Positions 3,729-30,920 of a stretch of 64,000 nt of DNA are shown piece after piece. The DNA comes from a virus. A model generated the notes under the pieces. The model did no database searches. It saw only the letters and a list, made by a program, of their open reading frames with translations, and was not told the origin of the DNA. Location of the stretch: the IMG/VR virus record IMGVR_UViG_3300044800_000286. One strand, 5' to 3'. Position numbers and translations under genes: made by a program. The stretch's first letter is position 1, and every line of letters starts with the position of its first letter.

Positions 3729-4028
3729 TTACCCCTCATTCTGAAGCTCTTGGAATTTGGACACCAATGATTCGCCCTGCGAAAGCTGCTCTTCTAAAAC
3801 CACAACCTTTTGCTCTAGCTCTTTTTTCTTCTCGTCGGCTAGGGCTTGAAGCTGTTTTGCTGTCATGCCTTCCGGGCTCTCGATCCCGTTCTGGCGCAGG
3901 TTTTTATAGGCCTCATTTTGCTTCTGCTGTTGCACGGCCTGCTCGCGCAAAATCGAATCGCGAGAAGCTTGCAATGTTTTGACCCGCCCCTGAATTGCTT
4001 TTAGTGTTTCTGTTGTAACTTCTGCCAT
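3729..4028 (-). CDS. small coiled-coil protein
   Basis: 99-aa heptad-rich ORF within the sbcCD-like cluster. Confidence 0.7.
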   Translation of the reverse strand: MAEVTTETLKAIQGRVKTLQASRDSILREQAVQQQKQNEAYKNLRQNGIESPEGMTAKQLQALADEKKKELEQKVVVLEEQLSQGESLVSKFQELQNEG

Positions 4029-4048
4029 CGTAAAACCCCCGCCTCACC

Positions 4049-4453
4049 CTACCATGCCTCGCCTCGCCTCGCCTCGCCTCGCCTCGCCTCGCCTCGCCTC
4101 GCCTCGCCTCGCCTCGCCTCGCCTCGCCTCGCCTCGCCTCGCCTCGCCTCGCCTCGCCTCGCCTCGCCTCGCCTCGCCTCGCCATGCCCTAGTCCTCCAC
4201 CAAAAAATCTCGTTCCTGTCCTACCCACCCGATGCCACGGCACGAACACCATCTTCGTCTGGATACTCACCCTCAGGTCTTCCGCTCTCGGATCGCTCCA
4301 CCAATAACCACCCGCTTCCCGGATGTTTTCCAGCGTCCGCTGGGCAGCATCAAAATTAGGCCAAGTCTGCTCGTAACTGTGATCCCCAGCACGGTCCTGA
4401 ATGTAAAGCGTTACTGGCATGCGTGCTTCAATGAACGGCCGCACTTCGGACAA
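4049..4453 (-). CDS. hypothetical protein with a microsatellite-encoded (GEARR)n tail
   Basis: Unique N-terminal ~90 aa followed by the in-frame pentamer repeat. Confidence 0.55.
   Translation of the reverse strand: MSEVRPFIEARMPVTLYIQDRAGDHSYEQTWPNFDAAQRTLENIREAGGYWWSDPRAEDLRVSIQTKMVFVPWHRVGRTGTRFFGGGLGHGEARRGEARRGEARRGEARRGEARRGEARRGEARRGEARRGEAW
4056..4180. repeat. perfect (GCCTC)25 microsatellite
   Basis: 25 identical copies counted directly, with degenerate copies on both flanks. Confidence 0.95.
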
Positions 4454-6687
4454 AGCCCTTTGCTCATCAGTTCCTCGGCCCGCCCCCGTTCCGCTTCAAC
4501 AGCAGCATCATGCAGGGCCTTCTGCGTGCCGGCCAAATCCGACTGCGCGGCGGAAAGCTGCTCGTCGATCTCGGCCAGTTTCCCGGCCGTTTCCTTCAGT
4601 TCCTTCCGCAGCGCAGCCGCATTCTCTAGGAAGGTAATACTGCTCTGAAGCCGGGTTAGCTCATTTACCGGGATTTCCGTGCGGAATGTCGCCAAGTCCC
4701 CGGTGTCGAATTGGCTTTCGATCAACGTAGCTGTTTCAGCTAAGGCCTTGATCTGCTTCCACAAAGCGTAAATCCCGTTCCATTTCTCGGTGGCGGCCTC
4801 GATGGCTTGGAGCGGCTTGTTCATCCAGCGGGCGAACGTGTAGGCGAAAGCCGCCCGCTCCGCATGAAGCGCAAGCTGCTGAAGCCGCTCGACTCCCGTG
4901 GTGTCGGGCAAGATCAGGGCTTCTACGATACGTTGCAGGGGCTCCAGCCGCAGGCAACGGGCCGCACACTCCACCAGCCAATAGGACTCGATTTCCAAGT
5001 GGCGGGCGGCGGACTCCAAAGCCTGTAGCTCTTCGGCCAACTCGTGGGCTTTCGCGGACATCTTCTCCAGCTTCGCCTTGCGCTCCTCGGAGTTGCGTAT
5101 CTGGGCCGCCAGCACGCGGGCCTCGCCGTCCTTCTGTGTCTTCAGGAGGTTGGCCTGCTTCTTCCCGGCCTCCAGCTTCTCCGTGCCGCCGAAAGCGCCG
5201 AGGATGGCGTTGATCTCGCTCGGCTTGTAGGTCTTGTTGTCGATGAGGAACTGCGGACGGTTCTGGCTGGCGAAGATCGGGTCGAAAGTGAAATCGCCGA
5301 TCTTGATCTCGCCCAGATTGAATTTCTTGACAATCTCCGGGATGTCCCCGTCAAGCTTGGAGAACTTGTCCTCGCCTATCGTGTAAGCGACGGAGCCCCG
5401 CTTCGAGCGGGTGGCAACAACGGTGTGCCCGTCGTGTTCGAGCGTAAGCTCAAGGGGCTCGTCCTTGGGATCGCGGATGTACGCCACGTCAAGCTCGTTG
5501 CGTATGATGCCCTGCAAAGCCCTGTACAGCGAACTGTTGTGGGCTATGGTGAAGTCCCCCAGCAAGAACAATCCGTCGCCATCAAGCTCAAAGCCAAAAT
5601 ACTCCCCCCATCCGGCAGATGTGGCATGGAACCCTGTTGTAAGAGGATTCTTACTTGAATCGTGCTTGGCTTGTTTACGTTGAATGCGGGTGGGAATGCT
5701 GGTCAATTCGCCAGCGATCCTCACTCGAAAATATACCCCTCCCCTGCCGTTCTGGTCTTCCTTTTTCGAGGGTTTTACCGATGCTCTGAAACCAAGGGAT
5801 CGAGCAATAAACGCAGCATCGTCCGCCAATGCCTTTAGTTTTGATACAAACTCAAACTGCTTTTGACCCTCTAGGTGGCCATCGGAATCCAGCAAACCCG
5901 CCAACAACAACATGCGATCACGGCTGCTGGCGGTTTTGTATTCCCAAGAGAGGCGTTTTTCCCCATCCACGACAAGGCCTAAAGAGCGGAATTTCGACAA
6001 CAACGCATTCTGCGAGTGTCCTCTCTTGGGAGCAACCCACTTCCTGCCGCCGCTGAAGACCCATGTGCTTGCTTTGTTGCCTTTCTTACCATTTCTCCGG
6101 AGCCTCAGGTTAAACTTGTCAGCGACTTTATTCAGATAGTCAAGCACTTCTTGGTCTGCCGTCGTAATCGCCAGAGAATGTAAGTTTGTGCTGCCGTCCC
6201 CCAGCCATAGACCAACGAAATATGGATTAAACACTTCACGATTACACGGGAATGTTATGGCGGAAGAACGCTGAAGTCGGGCAGAGTTGCGAAACCATTT
6301 CCCTCGGCACACTAAATCCCTAACTTCTATTTCAATTGGGTGTCTATAGGATGGGCATTTGCCCTGCAATTTCTTCCCGTTGAACTTAAGAGGTAAGATG
6401 TGCCTACTGTTGCAGCGCCAACGGTCGCCTTTTTTGGGGATGATATCATACATCTCGTCCCAGCCATGAGCAAGACTCAACACTCTGCGGGGTTTGGAGT
6501 CCGGCCCCATGAGCAAATCGCTGACCTGAACGTCTTCAACGTTCTTGATAGTTCCGTCATACATGAACACAGGAGTGCCCTTGGCTAGGCATTTCCCCTC
6601 GTTTGAGGGACCGATGAGTATGGTCAGCCCTTGTATGTCCAGTTCAAATGCTGGCCATGGCTGGAAATTTTTGCCGCTGAATTTCAT
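4411..6687 (-). CDS. SbcC/Rad50-like ATPase, N-terminal half, intein-containing
   Basis: MKFSGKNFQ...LTILIGPSNEGK|S (Walker A), Q-loop FASQ, coiled coil, ends at zinc hook CPKC; start moved to ATG 6687. Confidence 0.85.
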   Translation of the reverse strand: MKFSGKNFQPWPAFELDIQGLTILIGPSNEGKCLAKGTPVFMYDGTIKNVEDVQVSDLLMGPDSKPRRVLSLAHGWDEMYDIIPKKGDRWRCNSRHILPLKFNGKKLQGKCPSYRHPIEIEVRDLVCRGKWFRNSARLQRSSAITFPCNREVFNPYFVGLWLGDGSTNLHSLAITTADQEVLDYLNKVADKFNLRLRRNGKKGNKASTWVFSGGRKWVAPKRGHSQNALLSKFRSLGLVVDGEKRLSWEYKTASSRDRMLLLAGLLDSDGHLEGQKQFEFVSKLKALADDAAFIARSLGFRASVKPSKKEDQNGRGGVYFRVRIAGELTSIPTRIQRKQAKHDSSKNPLTTGFHATSAGWGEYFGFELDGDGLFLLGDFTIAHNSSLYRALQGIIRNELDVAYIRDPKDEPLELTLEHDGHTVVATRSKRGSVAYTIGEDKFSKLDGDIPEIVKKFNLGEIKIGDFTFDPIFASQNRPQFLIDNKTYKPSEINAILGAFGGTEKLEAGKKQANLLKTQKDGEARVLAAQIRNSEERKAKLEKMSAKAHELAEELQALESAARHLEIESYWLVECAARCLRLEPLQRIVEALILPDTTGVERLQQLALHAERAAFAYTFARWMNKPLQAIEAATEKWNGIYALWKQIKALAETATLIESQFDTGDLATFRTEIPVNELTRLQSSITFLENAAALRKELKETAGKLAEIDEQLSAAQSDLAGTQKALHDAAVEAERGRAEELMSKGLCPKCGRSLKHACQ
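5536..6591 (-). mobile_element. intein with LAGLIDADG homing endonuclease (352 aa) in the SbcC Walker A
   Basis: K|CLAKGTPVFMYDG ... FLLGDFTIAHN|S; VGLWLGDG and LAGLLDSDG motifs. Confidence 0.92.
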
Positions 6688-6902
6688 TAGAAGTCTGACC
6701 CACCGAGGCTGTATCCCACGGTGTCCGTATCGATCCACTCCGCACCACAGCCGGGACATGGATAAAGAGGGGGATCAAGCCCCAAGAACCCCGTGGACGA
6801 GAGATTCGCCCCGCAGCTGGAGCAATAGGCTCCGCCGTTGCCCTGATCGGTAACGACGTGCAGGCGATAGACTTTTTCTTCATCTTTGGGTTGCATCTTC
6901 AT
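6687..6902 (-). CDS. small zinc-ribbon protein
   Basis: CSSCG...CPGCG; overlapping start/stop with both neighbours. Confidence 0.65.
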   Translation of the reverse strand: MKMQPKDEEKVYRLHVVTDQGNGGAYCSSCGANLSSTGFLGLDPPLYPCPGCGAEWIDTDTVGYSLGGSDF

Positions 6903-15944: not shown

Positions 15945-18725
15945 CTACAACTTCTTCATGTCAATGATGGAGTCTACCCACCAACGCGACAGTTTTCTGC
16001 GGTTGCGGGCGAGAAAGCTGCGAAATCCAGCATCAAGAATCCAGATGTGGGCTTTATCTGTTTTTGAACGCACCACGCGGCCCGTCATTTGAATCAGCTT
16101 GAGACCCGCCAACCATTGATACCAGTCGGGGTCTTTTTGCATTCGGGCACGAATATAAGGTGTGAGGGGGGCGAAGGGGATTTTTACGACAATGCAGAAA
16201 CGTGCCAAGTCTTCTTTCAGGTCCAAGCCTTCCGACATTGAGGGCGAGAACAAAACTGTGGGGCTATCCATATCGGCATAATGCTGCTCCACGGCAGCCT
16301 CACGACTGCCTTTCACGCCACTGCTGTGCGTCAATACACGATCAGCTTGAGCGGTCGTGCCGAGATAATCCACAAGATACTTGTTGGTACGGAAGCTTTG
16401 GCAGTGCACTAGGCCCTTGTACTTGCCGTAGCGAGTCATAAGGGCTTCGACTTTCTTGGCCATCAGGGGCAGGGTCCTGTCGATGTTCTTGTAGCTCATG
16501 TCGCCCACTTCGTCGAAGAATATCGGGCGGTTCTCAACAGGAAACTCGCTGTCCATAGCGAGGACTTCCGCGTCGGCGGGGTCGATGCCGAGGTTGCGCA
16601 TAAAAGTTTCGAAGTCCAAAATCGTGGCTGACATAATTAAAATCTTGCTCGCCTTACAGAAGAGAATCTGATCGGCGAACAGCCGGGCGGTGAGCGGCTT
16701 GATAATGAGATCACCTGTGCCCCTCTTCTTGTTCTCGTCCCAATCACTGTAGGCGAACCATTCCTCCGGCTGCTCGGCGTTGGTAAACAGGGCGATGCGG
16801 CTTAGGAACTTGTCAGTAGCGTTGATCTTTTTGGCAACCTTGGATTTCTGCTCGCTATCTCCGGCGTCACGAGCCTTCTGGAGATCGGTACGATACTGGC
16901 GGTATTTTACCTGTGTGGCGGGGACGAAGATGTTATTGAGCCATTCGCACACGTGAGCGGTATCGCCCTCGTGGAAAAGCGGCAGCCGCCCCGCCTCGTG
17001 TTCGTCGCATTTCTTCTGCGTGATGTTGGTGTCGGTGAAGCCGAGGATCAAATCTTCCGTGCCGTGGGCTTCATCCAAAATCAATAATGTGCGGTCGGGA
17101 AGCTGGTGCGCTGTCGTGGTCTCAGCAAGATAGTATGCGAAATTCGTCACAGAGAGGGGGCTGCCGATGAAGCGGGCCTTGGCTGGCTTGTACCCGTGGC
17201 AGGTCTCGTGGTTGTGCATGTCCTCGAACACGAGGCTGGCGGACTCGCAGTCCATGTCGAACTCAGGGCAATAGTAATTCGCCTGACCCCGGAGTTCCAC
17301 GAGACCGTTCTTCTCAAAGTCACCCATCAATTGCTCCGTGAGGACTTTTTGCGGGGAGAGATAATACGCCCCCGGCTCATAAGCGCCATAAGTGGGAAGG
17401 GTCTTCGCATAGGAGCCAGCGGCGATGCCTATACCAGAATTATGTACTACTGTGAAATCGCCGAGAAGGAAGCGACCGTTGCCGTCTACAAAAAAGCCGA
17501 AATACTCGCCTCGCCCCGCTGGCAACACCTTGATGCCCGTGACAAGTGGGTCTTTCTTTTGTTGCCGAGGAGGACTCTGTTTACGTTGGAGAATAGACGG
17601 GATACTTTCAATCCCCACCCCAGAGGATACTGAAATTCTCCAATACTTTCCGACGACTGGACCGTCTTTGGCGTTTGTGCAAGTCTTCTTGCACGGTTTC
17701 ATATAAGCGGCAAAACCCAAGGAACGACAAAGATAGGCCACATCCTCGGCAAGTTGTTTGATTTTAAAAATAAACCCATACCCACCATGAACTATGTGAT
17801 GCCCATCAGAGTCAATAAGCCCAGCAAAAACACGCATGCGAGTCTCACGGGAATTACATTTATAAGATTGCGGGATATGCTTGTTGTTCAAAAGATCGAG
17901 ATCACGCAACATACTAAGCAGGGGATTTTTCTTGCGGCTTTTTGGATCACCGCCGCGCTCCCCGGTAGTTAATGAAAATGTGTAAGCGTTGTTATGAAAG
18001 TATGAGTTGACCTCCAACCCGAGAACGCTAGCGTAGCCGGACAAAAATCCACTGATCTCAACGTCCGAACTTGTAACTTCGGGGCGGTCACTTGTACCAT
18101 CACCCAGCCACAACCCCAAAAAGTACGGATCAACAGTAGTGGGTTGCCACGGGAACGATACTTCCGTACGAAACCCCTTCAAAAGATGTTTCTGTGTCTT
18201 AGATAAAGAACGATAATCCTCCAACGGAATATCCGCAACCGTATTCGATACTGCTTTGATCCCTAACTTGCGAAATTGTGGCACTTGGGATTTAGTGTAA
18301 ATTCCCTTGGTCTTGGTACCCCCCGTGAATTTCAGGCTAAGAATGTGCTGGGAATTGACTGTGTATTTGTCCCCCTTGATCGGAACTACATCGTACATTT
18401 CATCAAAGCCGTGAGACAAAGAAAGTACTCGTCGGGGCGTCGAATCGTTGCCCATGAGCAAGTCCCCAATGCGTACATCTTGCACTTTTTTGATTGTACC
18501 GTCGTACATTAAAACAAGAGTATCAAGACAAAAACACTTGCCCCCTCCGGTCGGAATTTCAAGGATGCAAAACTTCTTTGGACCGAGCAGCCAATGACTT
18601 ACAAGCTTTAATGCTTGTTCCTGCACTGGACGAATCTCCTCAAATGGAAAATGATCCGTGATGGTGCGGGACATCTCGCGGGTCAGATTCACCGACGCTG
18701 GCGCTGCTGCGGTTTCTTCGCTCAT
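15945..18725 (-). CDS. DinG/XPD-like SF2 DNA helicase, intein-containing
   Basis: Q-motif IRPVQ, PTGGGK|S, DEAH, MSAT, EGLD, QMTGRVVRS; start moved to leaderless ATG 18725. Confidence 0.9.
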   Translation of the reverse strand: MSEETAAAPASVNLTREMSRTITDHFPFEEIRPVQEQALKLVSHWLLGPKKFCILEIPTGGGKCFCLDTLVLMYDGTIKKVQDVRIGDLLMGNDSTPRRVLSLSHGFDEMYDVVPIKGDKYTVNSQHILSLKFTGGTKTKGIYTKSQVPQFRKLGIKAVSNTVADIPLEDYRSLSKTQKHLLKGFRTEVSFPWQPTTVDPYFLGLWLGDGTSDRPEVTSSDVEISGFLSGYASVLGLEVNSYFHNNAYTFSLTTGERGGDPKSRKKNPLLSMLRDLDLLNNKHIPQSYKCNSRETRMRVFAGLIDSDGHHIVHGGYGFIFKIKQLAEDVAYLCRSLGFAAYMKPCKKTCTNAKDGPVVGKYWRISVSSGVGIESIPSILQRKQSPPRQQKKDPLVTGIKVLPAGRGEYFGFFVDGNGRFLLGDFTVVHNSGIGIAAGSYAKTLPTYGAYEPGAYYLSPQKVLTEQLMGDFEKNGLVELRGQANYYCPEFDMDCESASLVFEDMHNHETCHGYKPAKARFIGSPLSVTNFAYYLAETTTAHQLPDRTLLILDEAHGTEDLILGFTDTNITQKKCDEHEAGRLPLFHEGDTAHVCEWLNNIFVPATQVKYRQYRTDLQKARDAGDSEQKSKVAKKINATDKFLSRIALFTNAEQPEEWFAYSDWDENKKRGTGDLIIKPLTARLFADQILFCKASKILIMSATILDFETFMRNLGIDPADAEVLAMDSEFPVENRPIFFDEVGDMSYKNIDRTLPLMAKKVEALMTRYGKYKGLVHCQSFRTNKYLVDYLGTTAQADRVLTHSSGVKGSREAAVEQHYADMDSPTVLFSPSMSEGLDLKEDLARFCIVVKIPFAPLTPYIRARMQKDPDWYQWLAGLKLIQMTGRVVRSKTDKAHIWILDAGFRSFLARNRRKLSRWWVDSIIDMKKL
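17439..18536 (-). mobile_element. intein with LAGLIDADG homing endonuclease (366 aa) in the helicase Walker A
   Basis: K|CFCLDTLVLMYDG ... FLLGDFTVVHN|S; LGLWLGDG and FAGLIDSDG motifs. Confidence 0.92.
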
Positions 18726-18731
18726 GTCCTT

Positions 18732-18760
18732 AGTATACGGCAGACCGGGAGATTTTGCTA
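18732..18760 (-). promoter_or_regulatory. sigma70-like promoter TAGCAA-N17-TATACT (leaderless)
   Basis: Member of a repeated promoter family; ATG 6 nt after the -10. Confidence 0.65.
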
Positions 18761-18835
18761 CTTTTAAGCTGTTTAAAACAAACAACTTGCATGCATTTTA
18801 TGGCCGAAAAGTCACCAATTGCACATAGCCTAATA

Positions 18836-21682: not shown

Positions 21683-23344
21683 TTATCCGTTTCCTACTAG
21701 CGTCAAGCAAATATCCGCGAGCGTTGCGTCCGCCGTGCCCGGACCATCAACCTCAAGAATATCCGAAGCGCTGAAGCTGATCGCGGAGGCTTGCGTGTAC
21801 GTGCCCGTTTCCCCCGCCGGAGGACTGCCCGTTTCGCTCCCGAAGACGCATGTCGCAAACGGAACGCCGTTCTTGCTGAACGAGAAGGTCGTGCCGAGGG
21901 TCGCTCCCGTGCCCGCGGTCGCGAGCGAGAGCGTGGCATTGATCGGGAAGGTCATCGGTATTCCGAGGGGTCCACGGAAAAGTATCTGGCTGTCCGTGCC
22001 GACGCCCGGAGCGAAGATGCACAGCGGTTTCGGGACCGCGGGCAATTCCAGCGTGATGGGATTCGTGCCGCCAACCGTGATCGAGGAGTTGGGAGAGGTG
22101 ATGGTCACGGAGCCGGTCTCGGTGTTGAGGCTGCTGACGCCGGCGCTTCCGCCGCCCGCGGGAACATTCCAAGTCCCGTCCGCCCTAAGAAAATATGTCG
22201 CCGCCTCGACGGCGGTGGAGGCGGGAACGAGACCTGCGACGCCGCTCGTCGGGGGGGAAGCCACGGCTCCGACGAAGGTCGGGACCGAACCCCATGCCGC
22301 TGCTGTTGGGCTTGACGCGACAAGAACTTTACCCGCCGAAGGCGCTGTAATGGAAATGACCACGCCGTTCAGATCGAGCGGACCTGTGATTCCGACGCTT
22401 CCCGCGGTGAGTCCTCCGGTGATACTCACAGTTGCATTAGCAGACCCGATGTTGATAACTTCTCCGGAATGAACAGTTCCAATGCCTATAGTGCCGGCGT
22501 CCAGATAGGCGGTGCCTGAAAGAGCCCTTATTGCTACCCCGTTTGCTCCCGTGGCGCTCGCGGAAATGATGATGCCGCCCACACCAGCGTTACTCTCCGT
22601 GATGTTGATGCCAGAGGTGGAGTTGTCGGCGATGTTGAGACCCAGGTTGGCGGAGTTCACCGTGGCTGGGAGAGTTACCGTGCCTGTGAAGGTCGGTGAA
22701 GCCGATGGTGCCGCCCCAAGATTGATAAGCGCCTGCGCTCCGGTTGTAGCTGCCGTGCCGCCCTGCCCGATCTGCGCGATGCCCGAGATGCGGGAGAAAT
22801 CGTTGAACCCGGCGATGAACAAGACCCCGACGGTCCCGCTGTTGTAGCTCAGGACGTACCCCACGGACTGCTCCGGGGCTGGAGGACTGAGGGGACGAGT
22901 AAGAGTGATCCCGCCCTTGTCAACGGCGGACAAGTAGACTTCCTGCCCGATGCTTGAAACGCTGAAGTCGCCATGCGTGTCGGCGTAGTAGAAGATGCCG
23001 GAAAAGGCAACGGTGACCGGGCTACCGATGCCAGCAGTCTGACTGACGAATCCGGAGGCCAGCACAGGATACGAGCCTGACGGCGGAGTACCTGTTGTGC
23101 CAGCATAAGCAAGCTGCACGTACAGTGTACTGCCCGACTCATAGAGGTTCACGAGGTTGCCGGAGAACAAAGCCTCGCCCGTTGTCGCCACGGTGCCCAG
23201 TTGCAGCAATGTAGAATCAACGACACCGTTTGAATTCAGGGCGACCGGAGCGCCCGGCACGCCTGGCCCGACAACCGCGGCATAGGCGACATCCACGAGG
23301 TTCGTGAGCGGGTTGAATACGCAAATCTGTGTTGGATTAGTCAT
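21683..23344 (-). CDS. tail fibre or structural protein
   Basis: GGTAATT..AL.NLG, SPTFTGTV, FLRADGTW and GVSSLN fibre-type motifs; start moved to ATG 23344 (ATGA coupling). Confidence 0.7.
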   Translation of the reverse strand: MTNPTQICVFNPLTNLVDVAYAAVVGPGVPGAPVALNSNGVVDSTLLQLGTVATTGEALFSGNLVNLYESGSTLYVQLAYAGTTGTPPSGSYPVLASGFVSQTAGIGSPVTVAFSGIFYYADTHGDFSVSSIGQEVYLSAVDKGGITLTRPLSPPAPEQSVGYVLSYNSGTVGVLFIAGFNDFSRISGIAQIGQGGTAATTGAQALINLGAAPSASPTFTGTVTLPATVNSANLGLNIADNSTSGINITESNAGVGGIIISASATGANGVAIRALSGTAYLDAGTIGIGTVHSGEVINIGSANATVSITGGLTAGSVGITGPLDLNGVVISITAPSAGKVLVASSPTAAAWGSVPTFVGAVASPPTSGVAGLVPASTAVEAATYFLRADGTWNVPAGGGSAGVSSLNTETGSVTITSPNSSITVGGTNPITLELPAVPKPLCIFAPGVGTDSQILFRGPLGIPMTFPINATLSLATAGTGATLGTTFSFSKNGVPFATCVFGSETGSPPAGETGTYTQASAISFSASDILEVDGPGTADATLADICLTLVGNG

Positions 23345-25026
23345 CGTGTTCTCGCTGGCCACTGCATCCGCTTGTGCTTGAATTCCTTCAGTTCCGGGAA
23401 GTCGTTCTCGGCATCGGCATCGACCAGTTGGTTCGCCGGGTTCCGCGGCGTGCGGTCGAACTTCGGGGAGTTGCCCTGGTCCCAGAGGTTGGGGCTGCGG
23501 CTCTCCTGCTCGCCGGGCTCCATTACCTGGCCGCTGTTGTGGACAAACACGCCAGCGGACAAAGCAAAATTGTGATATTTGTCTACAGAGATGTCGTACA
23601 CGTCCGCCGTACCCCAATGCGTAACCGAAACCACCTTATGGTTCAAGAATGAAGAACACAGTCCGCATAGGGGGCTGACAGTGCTTCTTTTAACATGCCA
23701 GCGGTCCTGGTTAGTTCTCATCCTAACTTCATCCATGTGCTTGCGGTGATTCGGGTCACTCCAGACTCTTTTTGCTTTCTCTTTCATGCGAACCGAGCTT
23801 TGCTGCCTAAAATCAGCATCCTGCCATAGACTTTTCCACAACTTGCTTTGCCGCTCGCCCGACTTTCTCCCGCCTTCTTCGGACTTGTTCCAAGGTACGA
23901 GTTGCGTTTTGCCTCGTTCAGCGGCTCTTTTACGGTCTTCCTGAGAAAGATTGACTTTCGGTACTCGCTTAAAGGGTGTCGGCTTTCCCGCCCACTGAGC
24001 GTTGAGCCTTAGCATATTTTGCCCGCGCGCCATTCGGGCCTTCTCGGTGACAATTGAGCCCCCCAAGCTCTGATGCAGCTTCAAATGGTCTTCCCATTTT
24101 ATCAACATCAGATTGTCGGGAGAATTGTTGAACCTGTTCAAATCCTCGTGGTGGCGAACATAGCCCTTGGGACAGCGGGCTTCCGCAAAACGGTGCGTGA
24201 ATTTCCAAGAGTCGTCTCCCGGCTGATAGGTGGTTTGATACTTATTGCCTCCAGCTTCCAATGGAGCCGAATCTCGATACAACGGCATGAGAGAATCCCC
24301 GGTCTCAAGCAATTCAGCCGCTTTGTACTCACCGTTTCGCATCAAAAACGGATGGTTAGGGGTGCATTTTATAGTTTCGCCGTTATCCAATGTCACCGCC
24401 AGAACGGCTGCGTCCTTTAGGGTTAGACGAGCAGAATGCCCAAGCCCTGGCCTGAGCAGACCCCCATCATTGAGCGAGTAGACCCAAAATTTATTCCTTC
24501 CGACAAGATCGCTCATGGCGACCTCAGTTCCGTCTAGCAGCGGAACCTTAGTATCTCCCGTCAGACAAATGTCGTATCCGTAAGCCGTGACGCGCTTGCT
24601 GCTTTTCTTGATCGCGAGGGCGGTGAGCCCGTCAAGGATGCCGCCGATCTTCAGGAGCGAATACGATGCGTGGGCGGCTGCGGATTTGTAATTCTTTTCC
24701 GCGGCGTACCGCACCGCAGCCTCGAAATCGCGTTGCGCATTTTGCAGCATGCGGAACATGTCCGGGCGGTTCGGCACCTCTTTTGCGGCTTTTTCCAGCC
24801 CGAGGATAAGCTCCCGGAGATTCGGCTCGGTCTCCGCGAATAGCTGTTCGTCCGCGGGGTTGTCTTTCCAGAGAAGGAAGATATCATCGTAGACGCCCCG
24901 CAAGTAGCTGATCTCCCCCGGCCACATGGCGCTGGACTGGAGAAGCTCGCTCCGGAACCGTGGGGGGGTCTGGAGCGGGGCTAGCCCCGAGGCGGACAGC
25001 TTGGCGATGGAAAGGCGTACAGGCAT
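23341..25026 (-). CDS. hypothetical (possibly virion) protein containing an intein
   Basis: Exteins total about 217 aa with no recognisable enzyme motif; GGGAG RBS before ATG 25026. Confidence 0.75.
   Translation of the reverse strand: MPVRLSIAKLSASGLAPLQTPPRFRSELLQSSAMWPGEISYLRGVYDDIFLLWKDNPADEQLFAETEPNLRELILGLEKAAKEVPNRPDMFRMLQNAQRDFEAAVRYAAEKNYKSAAAHASYSLLKIGGILDGLTALAIKKSSKRVTAYGYDICLTGDTKVPLLDGTEVAMSDLVGRNKFWVYSLNDGGLLRPGLGHSARLTLKDAAVLAVTLDNGETIKCTPNHPFLMRNGEYKAAELLETGDSLMPLYRDSAPLEAGGNKYQTTYQPGDDSWKFTHRFAEARCPKGYVRHHEDLNRFNNSPDNLMLIKWEDHLKLHQSLGGSIVTEKARMARGQNMLRLNAQWAGKPTPFKRVPKVNLSQEDRKRAAERGKTQLVPWNKSEEGGRKSGERQSKLWKSLWQDADFRQQSSVRMKEKAKRVWSDPNHRKHMDEVRMRTNQDRWHVKRSTVSPLCGLCSSFLNHKVVSVTHWGTADVYDISVDKYHNFALSAGVFVHNSGQVMEPGEQESRSPNLWDQGNSPKFDRTPRNPANQLVDADAENDFPELKEFKHKRMQWPARTR
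23536..24567 (-). mobile_element. intein with HNH endonuclease (344 aa)
   Basis: I|CLTGDTKVPLLDG, block B CTPNHPF, HHEDLNRFNNSPDNL (HNH), VYDISVDKYHNF...VFVHN|S. Confidence 0.9.
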
Positions 25027-25138
25027 AAGGCTCCCTATGAAGAGAGCCCAAAAGTTCAATCAAATCTAGGTGATGGCATACTGATTCCGGACTTCCTATA
25101 AATGCTTTCTCAAGTTCAAGATAACGTCCAACGGGGCC

Positions 25139-27009: not shown

Positions 27010-27084
27010 TGGCAGCCTCGATGGGTATCGATCCCACTTTCCGGCCTTGAAAGGGCCGTGTCCTAGCCAGTAGACGACGAGGCC
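27010..27084 (-). tRNA. tRNA-Glu(TTC)
   Basis: Cloverleaf; CGGCC-CU UUC AA-GGCCG; encoded CCA. Confidence 0.9.
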
Positions 27085-27090
27085 AAACTA

Positions 27091-27600
27091 TTACTCGAAC
27101 GTCCGCCCTTTGTAAAGAGCGGCCTCGTCCAAGAAAACCTGTCTAGTTCTTTTGGAGTGTTCTATGCGATGACAGATCGAGCACAACAAAACACACTTAT
27201 CTAACTCGCGCTTGATGTATTCCCAAGCTCGATTGGCGACTCCGCCAATCGTAAAATCCTTTTCACCTTTGCAGTGATGAAACTCCAGACCTGCGGGATG
27301 TTTGTCATACCCGCACTGGATGCATTTTCCACCAAGATACATAATGGCTGCGTTCTTCGCCCGAATACGGCGTATCATCGTGTTACAGGACTGACATCTA
27401 GTCCGATGCCGAATATTTTTTCCTAAACCCCCGCCACAAAGTTTACACTTTGAGGGAATAGGTGCCGCCATTCGTTTTGTTTTCAACCCCAATTTAGCCA
27501 ACCAGTACCGCACATTAGATTGGCAGGTGTTGAATTCATCAGCGATCTGACGCTGTGTCAAACCCCTTTCAATGGCTTGTAATACATCGGCACTGTTCAT
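27091..27600 (-). CDS. HTH + HNH homing endonuclease within the tRNA array
   Basis: N-terminal HTH; GGKCIQCGY...LEFHH...KCVLLCSICHRIEH. Confidence 0.85.
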   Translation of the reverse strand: MNSADVLQAIERGLTQRQIADEFNTCQSNVRYWLAKLGLKTKRMAAPIPSKCKLCGGGLGKNIRHRTRCQSCNTMIRRIRAKNAAIMYLGGKCIQCGYDKHPAGLEFHHCKGEKDFTIGGVANRAWEYIKRELDKCVLLCSICHRIEHSKRTRQVFLDEAALYKGRTFE

Positions 27601-27650
27601 TTGTATCTCCTTTGATGCTCTACCGTTGAGCTATATCTAAGGGATACAAA
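27600..27650 (-). promoter_or_regulatory. RBS-sequestering hairpin upstream of the HNH gene, with a tRNA D-arm-like loop
   Basis: UUUGUAUCCCUU pairs with AAGG(A)GAUACAAA; loop contains AUAGCUCAACGGUAGAGCA. Confidence 0.6.
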
Positions 27651-27660
27651 GTCAAAAAAT

Positions 27661-27736
27661 TGGTCCCAAGAGTGGCGCTCGAATCCACGTACTCCTGCTC
27701 TTCAGACAGGCGCTAATCCATCTCAGCTATCTTGGG
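27661..27736 (-). tRNA. tRNA-Phe(GAA)
   Basis: CCUGU-CU GAA GA-GCAGG; CCA. Confidence 0.88.
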
Positions 27737-27746
27737 TTCAAACTCT

Positions 27747-27822
27747 TGGTGCGCCCGGAGTGAATCGAACACTCCACCCCTGCCGTGTCAAGGCAGTGCT
27801 CTAACCGATGAGCTACGGGCGC
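27747..27822 (-). tRNA. tRNA-Val(GAC)
   Basis: CUGCC-UU GAC AC-GGCAG; CCA. Confidence 0.95.
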
Positions 27823-27826
27823 AAAC

Positions 27827-27863
27827 TGGGGGGCGGCTTATACAGTACCCTTTTTTGCCGCCC
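27827..27863 (-). ncRNA. 37-nt acceptor-stem microhelix ending in CCCA
   Basis: GGGCGGC/GCCGCCC 7-bp stem, 19-nt loop, discriminator plus CCA; same GUUU spacers as the tRNAs. Confidence 0.6.
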
Positions 27864-27867
27864 AAAC

Positions 27868-27932
27868 TGGACCGCCCCGTTTGCCTTGCGGCACCTAAGG
27901 TAGCTTCGCGAAAGCCACGATGGCCGAGACGG
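27868..27932 (-). ncRNA. 65-nt tRNA-like RNA ending in UCCA
   Basis: CCGUCUCG/CGGGGCGG stem; internal hairpins GUGGCUU/AAGCUAC and UGCC-GCAA-GGCA. Confidence 0.6.
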
Positions 27933-27939
27933 ATAAACC

Positions 27940-28016
27940 TGGTGGACAGGACACCTTAAGGATTTTACGCATCCCTTTAGCGGGGCGTTTCCCCTCTATG
28001 CGGACGCAACCCGCCC
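27940..28016 (-). ncRNA. 77-nt tRNA-like RNA with G3:U70-type acceptor and ACCA, no T-loop
   Basis: GGGCGGG/CCUGUCC-ACCA; internal hairpin AGGGAU-GCGUAAA-AUCCUU. Confidence 0.6.
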
Positions 28017-28023
28017 TCAAACC

Positions 28024-28097
28024 TGGTGGAGCCACGGGGATTCGAACCCCGGTTTCATCGCTGCGAACGATGTGTTCTCCCGCTGAACTATGGCCCC
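28024..28097 (-). tRNA. tRNA-Ala(CGC)
   Basis: CAUCG-UU CGC AG-CGAUG; G3:U70; CCA. Confidence 0.95.
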
Positions 28098-28103
28098 GAA
28101 ACC

Positions 28104-28310
28104 CTACAATTCGTACTTCACGATCCGACCCTGGGTGCTCGGATCATCCTGGAACTCGATCCAGTGCGCGTAGCAGTAGTGCAGCAGCATCCGGCTTAGC
28201 TCCTCGCTCCTCAGCGGATACTGATAATAGACCATGACGGCGTGGCTCGCCGGAGCGTCGCATCCGTCCGTCTTAGGATCGAACCACTGGCATTTCATGC
28301 CCACCGCCAA
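28104..28310 (-). CDS. small Cys/His-containing hypothetical protein
   Basis: Fills the gap between RNA genes; C..C..H..C..H. Confidence 0.5.
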   Translation of the reverse strand: MAVGMKCQWFDPKTDGCDAPASHAVMVYYQYPLRSEELSRMLLHYCYAHWIEFQDDPSTQGRIVKYEL

Positions 28311-28316
28311 ACTAAT

Positions 28317-28381
28317 TGAGCGGACTCACCGTTTCCGGCTACGGTCCATGTTCTCTTTCAAGCCCAGTTCGCCTTCCGCTC
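28317..28381 (-). ncRNA. tRNA-like RNA with a 7-bp closing stem, no encoded CCA
   Basis: GAGCGGA/UCCGCUC-A directly after the tRNA-Val(CAC) spacer; internal ACCGU/ACGGU hairpin. Confidence 0.45.
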
Positions 28382-28386
28382 AAACT

Positions 28387-28462
28387 TGGTGCGCCCCGCT
28401 GGAATTGAACCAGCGGCCTCTCGCGTGTGAAGCGAGCGCTCTGACCGCTGAGCTAGGGGCGC
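28387..28462 (-). tRNA. tRNA-Val(CAC)
   Basis: CUCGC-UU CAC AC-GCGAG; CCA. Confidence 0.95.
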
Positions 28463-28647
28463 GAATTCAGCAGGCCGAAAAGCTGGTCGGTCGCCGTGTT
28501 CAGCAAAAACAGCGGGGGCGGCTTCAGCGGCTCCGCCCTGTGCCTCGCTTCAAGCTGCGCCTTGTACACGACGAGGTGCTTGTAAATCTCCCGGAGCTTG
28601 TGCTTCGGCACCGCCATCGTTGCCGTCTCTACCTTCGTCTTCTTCAT
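28453..28647 (-). CDS. small basic hypothetical protein (64 aa)
   Basis: GAGGAG RBS; stop lies inside the 5' end of tRNA-Val(CAC). Confidence 0.6.
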   Translation of the reverse strand: MKKTKVETATMAVPKHKLREIYKHLVVYKAQLEARHRAEPLKPPPLFLLNTATDQLFGLLNSRP

Positions 28648-28664
28648 CGTCTCCTCAAAACCCT

Positions 28665-28738
28665 TGGAGCGGGCGATGGGAATCGAACCCACGTCCGTAG
28701 CTTGGGAAGCTACTATACTGCCATTGTACGACGCCCGC
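28665..28738 (-). tRNA. tRNA-Gly(CCC)
   Basis: GUAGC-UU CCC AA-GCUAC; U73 CCA. Confidence 0.95.
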
Positions 28739-28746
28739 TCAAATCT

Positions 28747-28822
28747 TGGTGGACCTGATGGGATTCGAACCCACGACCTCCTCGATGCCATCGAGGCGCG
28801 CTCCCAACTGCGCCACAGGCCC
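28747..28822 (-). tRNA. tRNA-Ala(GGC)
   Basis: CCUCG-AU GGC AU-CGAGG; G3:U70; CCA. Confidence 0.95.
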
Positions 28823-28828
28823 AAAACT

Positions 28829-28905
28829 TGGTAGCCCGGACGGGGCTTGAACCCGTAATCTTCACCTTGAGAGGGTGACGAGTTAGCCAGTTACTCTACC
28901 GGGCC
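28829..28905 (-). tRNA. tRNA-Glu(CTC)
   Basis: UCACC-CU CUC AA-GGUGA; CCA. Confidence 0.93.
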
Positions 28906-28917
28906 GAACTCAAAAAC

Positions 28918-28991
28918 TGGAGCGGGGTACGGGACTCGAACCCGTTTCTCCACCTTGGAAGAGTGGTACACAACCCATATGCCAACCCCGC
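28918..28991 (-). tRNA. tRNA-Gly(TCC)
   Basis: CCACU-CU UCC AA-GGUGG; U73 CCA. Confidence 0.92.
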
Positions 28992-29000
28992 GCAAAACTT

Positions 29001-29323
29001 TGTGTCAGACCGATAAGCCGGGTTCTGTCTGGGACAATCATTCATCTATGACGTACATCGCTGCACGCCTCAAGCTCCCAACCCGCCGCTTGGTAACGCC
29101 CCGAGCAGGGGCTCACGGCCTATTTGGGATTGCTCCGCATGGAGGTTGCCCGTTTCACCCGCACGGTTTCTGCTTGGCAAGCATAATACCGTGCGACTCG
29201 TCTCTGTTGCCCTATTCGTCATCCGGCCTTTCAACCAAACGCCCAGCCGTTAGCTGGCATGCTGCTCTGTGGAGCCCGGACTTTCCTCCCCCATTGCTGG
29301 CGGCGATTGTCTAGCCTGACACA
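29001..29323 (-). ncRNA. rnpB: RNase P RNA (compact bacterial type)
   Basis: P1 UGUGUCAGGC/GUCUGACACA; CR-I GAGGAAAGUCCGGGCUC; CAACAGAGAC; GGUGAAACG; GGAGCAA; UAGAUGAAUGAUUGUC; CR-V ACAGAACCCGGCUUA. Confidence 0.95.
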
Positions 29324-29328
29324 AACTC

Positions 29329-29403
29329 TGGAGCACCCGGTCGGTGTCGAGCCGACTCGTAACAGTTTTGCAGACTGCCGCGTTCCCGTTTCGCCACGGA
29401 TGC
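29329..29403 (-). tRNA. tRNA-Cys(GCA)
   Basis: GCAGU-CU GCA AA-ACUGU; U73 CCA. Confidence 0.92.
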
Positions 29404-29409
29404 AAATTT

Positions 29410-29484
29410 TGGCGGTGCCAGCGGGAGTCGAACCCGCGCTTCTACCGTGACAGGGTAGTGTCAGTACCGCTTGACCATGGCACC
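29410..29484 (-). tRNA. tRNA-Asp(GTC)
   Basis: CUACC-CU GUC AC-GGUAG; G73 CCA. Confidence 0.93.
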
Positions 29485-29523
29485 GCATTGTCCGAAGCGC
29501 ACATCGTTCTTCAGACACAAACT

Positions 29524-29597
29524 TGGTGGACCTGAGGAGAATCGAACTCCCAATTCAGCCTTGCAAAGGCCGCAGTTTCCCGTTAGCATACAGGCCC
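29524..29597 (-). tRNA. tRNA-Ala(TGC)
   Basis: CGGCC-UU UGC AA-GGCUG; G3:U70; weak D-stem. Confidence 0.88.
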
Positions 29598-29869
29598 ACA
29601 ATCTGTTCCCACGACAAACCCAAATACTTCATGCACCAATGGACTGCTTTGTGGCAACGAAAACACAATCTCACAAACTCCCCACTTTTCATCTCAATCT
29701 GGTGTTCTTTCTCTCCCATTGATTCAAATCTCTTGTGTTCTTTACCATCTTTTCGATGCGCAACTGATCTCTTTGAATAACTACAAAAGAAACACTCTTT
29801 TCCAAGATTTGTATCAACTATCGCTCGCTTTCGGTCCCTTCGCTTCTTATTCCACTTAGCAGTCGCCAC
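29555..29869 (-). CDS. small HNH-like zinc-binding protein overlapping tRNA-Ala(TGC)
   Basis: CFFC...AH...LCFRCHKAVH; AGGUGG RBS. Confidence 0.65.
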   Translation of the reverse strand: MATAKWNKKRRDRKRAIVDTNLGKECFFCSYSKRSVAHRKDGKEHKRFESMGEKEHQIEMKSGEFVRLCFRCHKAVHWCMKYLGLSWEQIVGLYANGKLRPLQG

Positions 29870-29895
29870 AAACCCACCTTGGATCGCCTAAACTT

Positions 29896-29969
29896 TGGAG
29901 CGGACGATGAGAATTGAACTCACGCCTGAACGTTGGCAACGTTCCGTACTACCACTATACTACGCCCGC
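29896..29969 (-). tRNA. tRNA-Gly(GCC)
   Basis: GAACG-UU GCC AA-CGUUC; U73 CCA. Confidence 0.95.
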
Positions 29970-29970
29970 T

Positions 29971-30046
29971 TGGTAGCCCCTGTCGGAATCGAACCGACGG
30001 CCCTTCGGGTGTAGACCGAATGCTCTGACCGCTGAGCTAAGAGGCT
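29971..30046 (-). tRNA. tRNA-Val(TAC) with atypical C33
   Basis: UUCGG-UC UAC AC-CCGAA; A73 CCA. Confidence 0.88.
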
Positions 30047-30061
30047 GCACAAAATATCGAT

Positions 30062-30147
30062 CCCGTCTGCACAGGGTTCCGAATCGAACGGGGAGGGAAT
30101 GACCCCCTTTGCTGGTCGCCTATGCCAGCCTGCCCTGTGCAGACAAG
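30062..30147 (-). ncRNA. tRNA-like RNA with a 12-15 bp closing stem, D-like arm and T-loop
   Basis: GUCUGCACAGGG/CCCUGUGCAGAC; GCUGG-CAUAGGCGA-CCAGC; CCG-UUCGAUU-CGG. Confidence 0.65.
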
Positions 30148-30150
30148 AGA

Positions 30151-30185
30151 ACAAAAACAAAAAGGACGACCTTTTCAGATCGTCC
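30151..30185 (-). terminator. attenuator terminator in front of the tRNA/rnpB array
   Basis: GGACGAUC-UGAAAA-GGUCGUCC followed by UUUUUGUUUUUGU. Confidence 0.85.
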
Positions 30186-30239
30186 TCGGAATCTCTTGGT
30201 TGGTTTCTGCTTATCCTTCCCAACCATCCTCCGAGGACA
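30181..30239 (-). promoter_or_regulatory. antiterminator hairpin, mutually exclusive with the terminator
   Basis: UGUCCUCGGA/UCCGAGGACG plus UGGUUGG/CCAACCA; uses 5 nt of the terminator 5' arm; its 5' strand is leader codons 33-39. Confidence 0.75.
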
Positions 30240-30392: not shown

Positions 30393-30538
30393 GGAAGCTG
30401 CCCGGTAGGGAGTCAAAACCCTATCCGTGCCCGGATCGCAGCTTGCGCTGCGGCATCGCCCCGAACTATGCGGGGGCATTCTGCCGTATGATCCACTCCT
30501 GCGCAGGGGCGAACCACGTTAAACTACGGGCAGCTTCC
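30393..30538 (-). ncRNA. 146-nt expanded tRNA-like RNA
   Basis: 12-bp closing stem GGAAGCUGCCCG/CGGGCAGCUUCC, UAGUUUAA junction, CCCCG-CAUAGUU-CGGGG arm, two GNRA hairpins, T-like arm UAGGG-UUUUGACU-CCCUA; TTGACA promoter upstream. Confidence 0.65.
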
Positions 30539-30574
30539 CGTACTCCCTATCAATACCGCGAAAGCGGGAATCTT

Positions 30575-30614
30575 GTCAAGAACTATTTTTGGGAATTATC
30601 CCTTTAACTCCACA
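30575..30614. repeat. 40-bp dispersed repeat, copy 1 (includes the -35 TTGAC on the minus strand)
   Basis: 36/40 identical to 31385-31424. Confidence 0.85.
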
Positions 30615-30920
30615 AACTTCTAGCGTGGGATTTGGGTTACGTCGCAATTTCACTAAAGTGACGCCCTTGTCAGAACAATTTAACGTCGTGTACTTGATCC
30701 ACGAACGCAGGGACTTGTTGTGACGCAAAACTCGACGGATGCAAACGCCAAGGTAGCCTGTGTTCGTATTTATGAATCCGGGGATTATTCCTCGATTACG
30801 ACCGTGGCCGTGAATCAGCGTCAAACGGTCCTTGCCCGTCTCCCATGCCTGCTGCACAATCTTGTTGAGAATTCCATCGGTGATATCTGCCGGGAAGTAT
30901 CCGTGAAGGTCAATTTCCAC
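30576..30920 (-). CDS. Smr-domain protein
   Basis: EIDLHG and TLIHGHG Smr motifs; GGAGG RBS. Confidence 0.75.
   Translation of the reverse strand: MEIDLHGYFPADITDGILNKIVQQAWETGKDRLTLIHGHGRNRGIIPGFINTNTGYLGVCIRRVLRHNKSLRSWIKYTTLNCSDKGVTLVKLRRNPNPTLEVCGVKGIIPKNSS

Follow-up and report, generated by a model that had tools for sequence, protein, structure and literature searches.

A GNN-decoding tRNA block with its own RNase P RNA behind a codon-matched leader: a candidate self-regulated operon in a giant phage

Phage tRNA genes are usually explained by codon-usage matching or as spares against host nucleases, and how their expression is controlled is, to our knowledge, largely unknown. Here we describe a tRNA array in a 64,000-nt stretch of viral DNA (the window) from IMG/VR record IMGVR_UViG_3300044800_000286, where 14 tRNA genes lie on the minus strand within ~3 kb (positions 27010–30046). 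Twelve of them together serve one complete row of the genetic code, the codons that begin with G, and the locus therefore raises the question of what gathers these tRNAs into one place and keeps them there. Our answer, which we hold at a probability of roughly 0.6, is that the stretch is a leader-attenuated, self-regulated operon for the GNN and Cys tRNAs (and, in this sub-lineage, a Phe tRNA), equipped with the phage's own RNase P ribozyme. We read it in this way because it combines a promoter, a leader matched in codons to the array, a terminator and an antiterminator, and because leaders and tRNA blocks pair correctly across a complete related genome.

The GNN block and its codon-matched leader

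ARAGORN and the Rfam model RF00005 call the same set of 14 genes, the latter with scores of 47.5–70.6 bits against a cut-off of 29, and neither finds any other tRNA within the window. Read in the direction of transcription, the array runs Val-TAC, Gly-GCC, Ala-TGC, Asp-GTC and Cys-GCA, then the RNase P RNA, then Gly-TCC, Glu-CTC, Ala-GGC, Gly-CCC, Val-CAC, Ala-CGC, Val-GAC, Phe-GAA and Glu-TTC. All 12 of the NNC anticodons that do not start with A34 are present, each exactly once (Val, Ala, Gly, Asp and Glu), and under standard wobble rules they decode all 16 GNN codons. The original prediction, made from the letters of the sequence, had described just this composition: 12 of 14 tRNAs with C36 and no duplicate anticodon, full GNN coverage, Phe GAA and Cys GCA as the remaining two, and no tRNA for an ANN or CNN codon in the window. 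Both programs bear it out on every count. The RNase P RNA and the HNH endonuclease gene within the array had gone unmentioned there. Because every one of the 14 genes encodes its CCA end and the identity marks are as expected (G3:U70 in the three Ala tRNAs, U73 in Gly and Cys, A73 in Val and Phe, G73 in Asp), we regard the array tRNAs as real isoacceptors rather than anticodon-mutated copies. In nearly every one of them the encoded CCA is followed by A/G-GTTTG; this motif is conserved in the spacers between tRNAs and may serve as a signal for processing.

Upstream of the array lies a short leader open reading frame (ORF) whose codons mirror the tRNAs behind it. Val, Ala, Gly, Asp, Glu, Phe and Cys account for 29 of its 40 codons after the start (72%), and it holds Watson–Crick codons for all 14 array anticodons, as against 2/6 and 0/4 of the anticodons in the contig's other two tRNA blocks. 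Coverage of 14/14 was reached by only 35 of 200,000 random 40-codon windows drawn from the phage's own genes (1.75 × 10⁻⁴). The leaders of the other two blocks, in turn, cover 5/6 and 4/4 of their own anticodons. All three tRNA blocks are preceded by the promoter motif ATAG[CT]T[CG]TTGACA, and these are its only three exact copies in the 155-kb contig.

Between leader and tRNAs, two mutually exclusive RNA structures can be drawn. One is an intrinsic terminator, which is kept in relatives with covariation in its stem (RNAalifold consensus fold). The other is an antiterminator helix between GTCCTCGG, which lies inside the end of the leader ORF, and CCGAGGAC, which is the 5' arm of the terminator. 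In the five sequences compared, 95% of the cells of this helix are paired and 3 of its 8 pairs show compensatory changes, compared with 32–58% pairing in slid controls. Rfam gives no T-box match in the window operon.

Two conserved RNase P motifs, searched for in viral contigs, and later the leader–terminator signature led to relatives of the block; a protein-based search with a 644-aa neighbour returned weak partial matches only. The same block (Val, Ala, Gly, Asp, Glu and Cys) stands in G001 (463 kb, 100% complete), G006 (170 kb), G007 and G008. The full 12/12 NNC set recurs in G006 and G008, and G001 lacks Glu-TTC. Neighbouring proteins are syntenic and 33–79% identical, orthologous tRNAs are only 60–77% identical, and G006 repeats the layout seen here, with the GNN block followed after ~36 kb by Tyr/Leu and after a further ~5 kb by Pro/Met. 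In all four relatives, too, the RNase P RNA sits between tRNA-Cys and tRNA-Gly(TCC); its coordinates in related loci are 4812–5132 (L022), 4610–4960 (L127) and 3941–4258 (L130).

The search by leader–terminator signature yielded 7 viral and 31 metagenomic loci, and homologous GNN leaders are present in all relatives. The composition of the block in these relatives is far from random: the tRNAs behind 18 distinct leader variants are 143 GNN, 23 Cys, one Phe and none of any other kind, and each of the 18 leaders retains one or two Cys codons. The order of the genes after the RNase P gene takes at least four arrangements across the sub-lineages with membership constant. Because order was reshuffled while membership was kept, selection on membership accounts for the block better than simple inheritance of its gene order does.

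The Phe tRNA of the window has an unusual D-arm, which recurs in G001 and G006 in the first of the Phe tRNAs of their Pro/Met/Phe block. In G006 an HNH gene lies next to the Phe pair, and the HNH homing endonuclease gene of the array shares 72% identity with it. We therefore take the core of the block to be GNN plus Cys, and Phe to be a lineage-specific latecomer that most likely moved in together with the homing endonuclease. A tRNA 5' fragment sits between the Phe tRNA and the HNH gene. No identity could be assigned to it, as its best local matches are generic D-arms.

How far does this sorting extend to the rest of the tRNA complement? The contig carries 27 tRNAs: the GNN block, Tyr with five Leu, four Pro with two Met, and one tRNA with the anticodon CTA. 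G001 carries 68–69 tRNAs for all 20 amino acids in six blocks, namely Ser x4 with Leu-TAA; Trp/His/Arg/Asn/Gln/Lys; Ile/Thr/Gln; GNN plus Cys; Tyr/Leu; and Pro/Met/Phe. The class II tRNAs (Ser, Leu and Tyr) are set apart there from class I. Each G001 block lies behind a short leader ORF rich in the amino acids of that block, among them a Ser-rich leader with one TTA codon that matches Leu-TAA, a Thr/Ile/Gln-rich leader and a Lys/Arg/His/Asn/Gln/Trp-rich leader, and the true pairing of leaders with blocks is the best of all 720 permutations. Phe behaves in the same manner at the Pro/Met leader, which contains Phe codons in G001 and G006, where the block includes Phe tRNAs, and none in the present contig (G000), where it does not.

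The original prediction had further proposed that the tRNA complement is divided into functional modules, possibly each with its own sensor, and had offered the first codon letter as one basis of the division. The modules themselves hold up, as conserved blocks each with an own-codon leader and a terminator as a candidate sensor. The first codon letter does not hold as a general rule, since only the GNN block is pure in this respect and the other blocks mix first letters; even the GNN block is pure only if one sets aside its constant member Cys-GCA and, in the sub-lineage of the window, Phe-GAA. The remaining tRNAs of the contig do stand in separate blocks, as had been suggested, grouped by amino acid and not as ANN, CNN and UNN clusters.

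The GNN block itself departs from chance when genes are counted: the probability of finding 12 GNN genes within one 14-gene block among the contig's 27 tRNAs is ~5 × 10⁻⁶. Counted by amino-acid family in the complete relative G001, the five GNN families all fall within one six-family block (p ~4 × 10⁻⁴).

A putative switch and the grouping it would explain

From this anatomy we infer which way the switch works, what it senses and why selection would favour the grouping, as follows. The operon would be one transcription unit, read from the promoter type common to all tRNA blocks of the phage, and the position of the ribosome on the leader is predicted to expose or hide the antiterminator. When decoding is fast, the ribosome would reach the stop codon of the leader and cover GTCCTCGG, whereupon the terminator would form and the tRNA genes would be off. 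When any codon of the array is decoded slowly, for example where its tRNA class is scarce or cut, the ribosome would stall upstream, GTCCTCGG would remain available for pairing with the 5' terminator arm, and the polymerase would read into the array.

On these terms, the tRNA set of the phage would consist of several such self-regulating blocks, and selection would keep the GNN and Cys tRNAs together, as feedback on each would be correct only behind a leader that samples its codon. In our reading, the grouping arose once and was then held by this leader constraint. As to how it first formed, our best guess is history together with a demand that is high and correlated. The array's seven amino acids take 39.1% of the phage's codons (GNN alone, 33.9%), and for this reason we call the GNN block a high-demand block; Cys, with 1.5% of codons, falls outside that logic. 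A bolder extension, which we consider doubtful, would make the whole arrangement of ~6 operons, each switched by a leader sampling precisely the codons of its own block, a closed-loop supply resolved by codon class, serving as damage sensor and counter-measure against tRNA-depleting host defences, with block borders tuned to those tRNAs that are lost together.

Several observations weigh against the attenuated-operon reading. When counted by amino-acid family rather than by gene, the grouping in the window's own, incomplete contig has a p of only 0.045. All GNN blocks found share one ancestor and represent a single evolutionary event. Watson–Crick codon coverage is incomplete in some relatives (9/12 and 10/13), and the GNN leaders of relatives that have no Phe tRNA in the array still carry 0–3 Phe codons. 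Strict covariation of these codons with Phe-tRNA membership was accordingly rejected in favour of a trend, with 3–4 Phe codons where Phe is a member and 0–3 elsewhere. A preference for GCN and GGN codons could also arise simply from GC-rich stems in the leader. Finally, the switch would equally respond to starvation for amino acids, from which the phage would gain nothing.

Some of these points lend themselves to another account, in which the GNN grouping is a frozen accident: an inherited order that arose by tandem duplications or chance assembly, behind a leader that may regulate, with a membership that is not under selection. One homologous leader in all GNN blocks found does point to one origin, the other RNase P-bearing giant-phage arrays group isoacceptors and not the whole GNN set, the family-level p is as modest as just stated, and a single block in six is pure by codon letter. 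A mere accident sits less easily with a history in which the order was reshuffled at least four times, no outsider but Cys (and one Phe) entered, and no GNN family was lost. Nor does the set look like the product of recent duplication with a shift of anticodon, since the families within the block are barely more alike (49–55% cross-family tRNA identity) than they are to tRNAs outside it (45–51%), and the identity elements are canonical. We judge this account improbable but credible.

The leader would also detect the loss of a tRNA class, and so it would suit a block whose function is to replace host tRNAs removed by an anticodon nuclease or another tRNA-depleting defence, with borders that mirror the range of the toxin, another basis of division that had been offered at the outset. 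Homing endonucleases linked to tRNAs are present in the array, and the abstracts of two reports discuss phage tRNA arrays as anti-defence elements (PMC12803027, PMC13096335). The complete relative has all 20 amino acids in similar blocks, so that GNN is not singled out. We know of no nuclease with a GNN-plus-Cys range, and we think a counter-defence module of this kind quite unlikely. Sorting by anticodon-loop chemistry, in which the members of a block would share a modification class at position 37 (C36 with plain or methylated A37), was the last basis proposed and draws on the C36 of 12 of the 14 tRNAs. It runs into Cys and Phe, two A36 tRNAs inside the block; A36 tRNAs such as these are of the i6A class. 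Elsewhere, Tyr with Leu combines A36 and G36, Pro with Met combines G36 and U36, and the basic block of G001 combines A36, G36 and U36. With blocks that mix C36, A36, G36 and U36, we hold this explanation to be hardly tenable. The leader-attenuated operon, with membership held by the codons of the leader, remains the reading that we prefer.

Features of the operon and its surroundings

The elements of the operon are listed in Table 1 in the order of transcription.

Table 1. Elements of the tRNA operon and its upstream region, in window coordinates
Feature	Position	Strand	Basis or remark
Putative sigma-70-like promoter with upstream motif ATAGTTCTTGACA	30550..30586	-	-35 TTGACA at 30579-30574, -10 TATTGA at 30555-30550; predicted function
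Structured RNA domain, 146 nt, in promoter-to-leader-ORF interval	30393..30538	-	Perfect 12-bp closing helix, arms 30538-30527 and 30404-30393
Leader ORF, 41 codons	30211..30336	-	Translation
Antiterminator GTCCTCGG (30238-30231) x CCGAGGAC (30189-30182)	30182..30238	-	8-bp helix, covariation
Intrinsic terminator, 11-bp stem then TTTGTTTTTG	30150..30187	-	Stem at 30187-30162 plus U-tract
76-nt element in terminator-to-first-tRNA interval, 10-bp closing stem, GTTCGATTC T-loop-like motif	30067..30142	-	
tRNA-Val (TAC)	29971..30046	-	ARAGORN, Rfam
tRNA-Gly (GCC)	29896..29969	-	ARAGORN, Rfam
Unverified ORF in Gly-Ala spacer, Cys/His-rich C-terminus	29555..29869	-	ORF list; no Pfam/PHROG match
tRNA-Ala (TGC), G3:U70	29524..29597	-	ARAGORN, Rfam
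tRNA-Asp (GTC)	29410..29484	-	ARAGORN, Rfam
tRNA-Cys (GCA), U73	29329..29403	-	ARAGORN, Rfam
RNase P RNA, bacterial class A	28998..29322	-	Rfam RF00010, 209 bits (gathering cut-off 100); full-length, model positions 1-367
tRNA-Gly (TCC)	28918..28991	-	ARAGORN, Rfam
tRNA-Glu (CTC)	28829..28905	-	ARAGORN, Rfam
tRNA-Ala (GGC), G3:U70	28747..28822	-	ARAGORN, Rfam
tRNA-Gly (CCC)	28665..28738	-	ARAGORN, Rfam
Unverified 64-codon spacer ORF, stop overlapping tRNA-Val (CAC)	28453..28647	-	No family match
tRNA-Val (CAC)	28387..28462	-	ARAGORN, Rfam
Unverified 64-codon spacer ORF	28104..28298	-	No family match
tRNA-Ala (CGC), G3:U70	28024..28097	-	ARAGORN, Rfam
Three short CCA-ended non-tRNA hairpin units, each then tRNA-type GTTTG spacer	27827..28016	-	Read from sequence
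tRNA-Val (GAC)	27747..27822	-	ARAGORN, Rfam
tRNA-Phe (GAA)	27661..27736	-	ARAGORN, Rfam
tRNA 5' fragment, acceptor strand and D-arm only, just 5' of HNH start codon	27604..27655	-	
HNH homing endonuclease gene	27091..27600	-	phrog_2255, E 5e-24
tRNA-Glu (TTC), final array gene	27010..27084	-	ARAGORN, Rfam

The 146-nt domain matches no Rfam family on its strand, and a sub-threshold Atu_C7 match on the opposite strand was taken as chance. A closed domain resembling it is present in G001 and absent in G006 and G008. One sub-lineage of relatives carries an extra tRNA-Ala(TGC) 370–480 nt upstream of the operon promoter (815–890 in L133, 5489–5563 in L135 and 5675–5749 in L167, in oriented loci), a GNN tRNA that nevertheless lies outside leader control. 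As it sits upstream of the promoter, it was ruled out as a counterpart of the 146-nt domain. The 76-nt element separates the terminator from the first tRNA in the window; in G001, G006 and G008 the two are directly adjacent. The three CCA-ended hairpin units may be minihelix-like substrates for processing or for the CCA enzyme.

The contig to which the window belongs is linear, 155,256 bp long and, by CheckV's estimate, ~50% complete, and its gene content (a tape-measure protein, ribonucleotide reductase, helicases, an HNH endonuclease and three intein-bearing proteins) is that of a tailed phage. BLAST searches of GenBank phages with the array, the ribonucleotide reductase, a 1032-aa replication protein and the RNase P RNA as queries returned no cultured relative. 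The intein-bearing proteins, encoded at 4411–6759, 15945–18785 and 23341–25059 (all on the minus strand), combine Hint with LAGLIDADG or HNH domains, and the G001 homologue of the third has no intein.

Just upstream of the tRNA operon, at 30576–30920 on the minus strand, lies a gene for an Smr-domain protein (Pfam PF01713, E 1.5 × 10⁻⁷), itself preceded at ~31405 on the same strand by a near-copy of the tRNA-block promoter motif. Bacterial Smr nucleases act on stalled or collided ribosomes, and by analogy an Smr gene at this place would fit a stall-sensing system.

The CTA tRNA of the contig, which resembles an amber suppressor, lies outside the window at contig positions 1659–1731 on the minus strand. 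G001 has three such tRNAs, adjoining its Ile/Thr/Gln block. TAG closes 26 of the 99 longest ORFs in the contig, so wholesale recoding of TAG is unlikely.

RNase P motifs also lie within the tRNA arrays of several unrelated giant-phage contigs (G002–G005, L044, L055, L068, L077 and L090), and BLAST found no RNase P RNA of this kind in GenBank phage records. In such distant phages (G002, G003, G005 and others), isoacceptors stand together and Gly, Ala and Val are often near each other; none of them has the full GNN set in one block. Leader-like ORFs can be seen in one of these giant phages. There (G003, L027 upstream of 57465; L028 upstream of 91063), one Pro/Arg/Leu/Tyr-rich ORF precedes Pro, Arg, Leu and Tyr tRNAs, and another, which is Ala/Ser/Gly-rich and contains Cys and Trp, precedes Arg, Ser, Gly, Ala, Trp and Cys tRNAs. 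No leader-like ORF was seen at several other blocks of this phage.

Known systems and what the operon would add

In full-text literature searches, no paper came up that describes tRNA genes preceded by a codon-matched leader, phage arrays sorted by codon box, or a phage RNase P RNA located within a tRNA array. Dense, co-oriented tRNA genes interspersed with homing endonuclease genes are familiar from the large clusters of T4, T5, cluster C mycobacteriophages and the Xanthomonas jumbo phage XacN1, which has 56 tRNAs (PMC5852040). What sets the present array apart from these is a complete and non-redundant row of the codon table, a membership that is constant across the lineage, an RNase P RNA and a codon-matched leader. 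High-density arrays with HNH genes on mobile DNA are likewise described in reports on mycobacterial tRNA array units and accessory bacterial arrays (PMC5966550, PMC12803027). Those arrays are mixed in composition, and we found neither a codon-matched leader nor codon-box sorting reported for them.

The tRNA region of Caulobacter phage phiCbK, a laboratory phage (NC_019405, region at 47.7–52.6 kb), offers a partial parallel, with tRNA blocks set apart by annotated terminators. Its gp335, a 45-codon ORF rich in Ser, Leu, Lys, Pro and Ala, stands ahead of a terminator, behind which come Pro, Lys, Leu, Ala and Ser tRNAs. The partition there is a different one, with Trp-Gly-Gly, Glu-Asp and Phe-Val-Ile-Gln as blocks; an RNase P RNA is lacking, and phiCbK is not related to the present phage.

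As a regulatory device, the leader most resembles the leader-peptide attenuators of enterobacteria (ilvGMEDA, thr, trpL, hisL and pheL; PMC3082878), with which it has in common a short codon-enriched ORF, overlapping antiterminator and terminator, and several amino acids per leader. It differs in that the genes controlled would be tRNAs and a ribozyme instead of biosynthetic enzymes, in that one leader would sample up to 14 codons, about one for each tRNA of the operon, and in that it belongs to a virus and to a family of parallel sensors, with a switching behaviour predicted from sequence. T-box riboswitches are similar in that a cis-acting leader controls a terminator according to the state of a specific tRNA, but a T-box binds uncharged tRNA directly and without translation, whereas here the reading would be done through a translated ORF.

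The feature is thus a combination of known kinds, phage tRNA arrays and leader-peptide attenuation. We see in it a whole giant-phage lineage that keeps its tRNA genes in conserved regulons, each behind an own-codon leader that would be translated and could act as a sensor, with the largest regulon spanning a complete codon-table row and including an RNase P of its own. If attenuation is indeed at work, this would be ribosome-mediated attenuation of tRNA genes, of which we found no published example, and the virus would be measuring decoding capacity separately for each class. It would also give a reason for tRNA genes to stay together, in that each must remain behind the leader that samples its codon.

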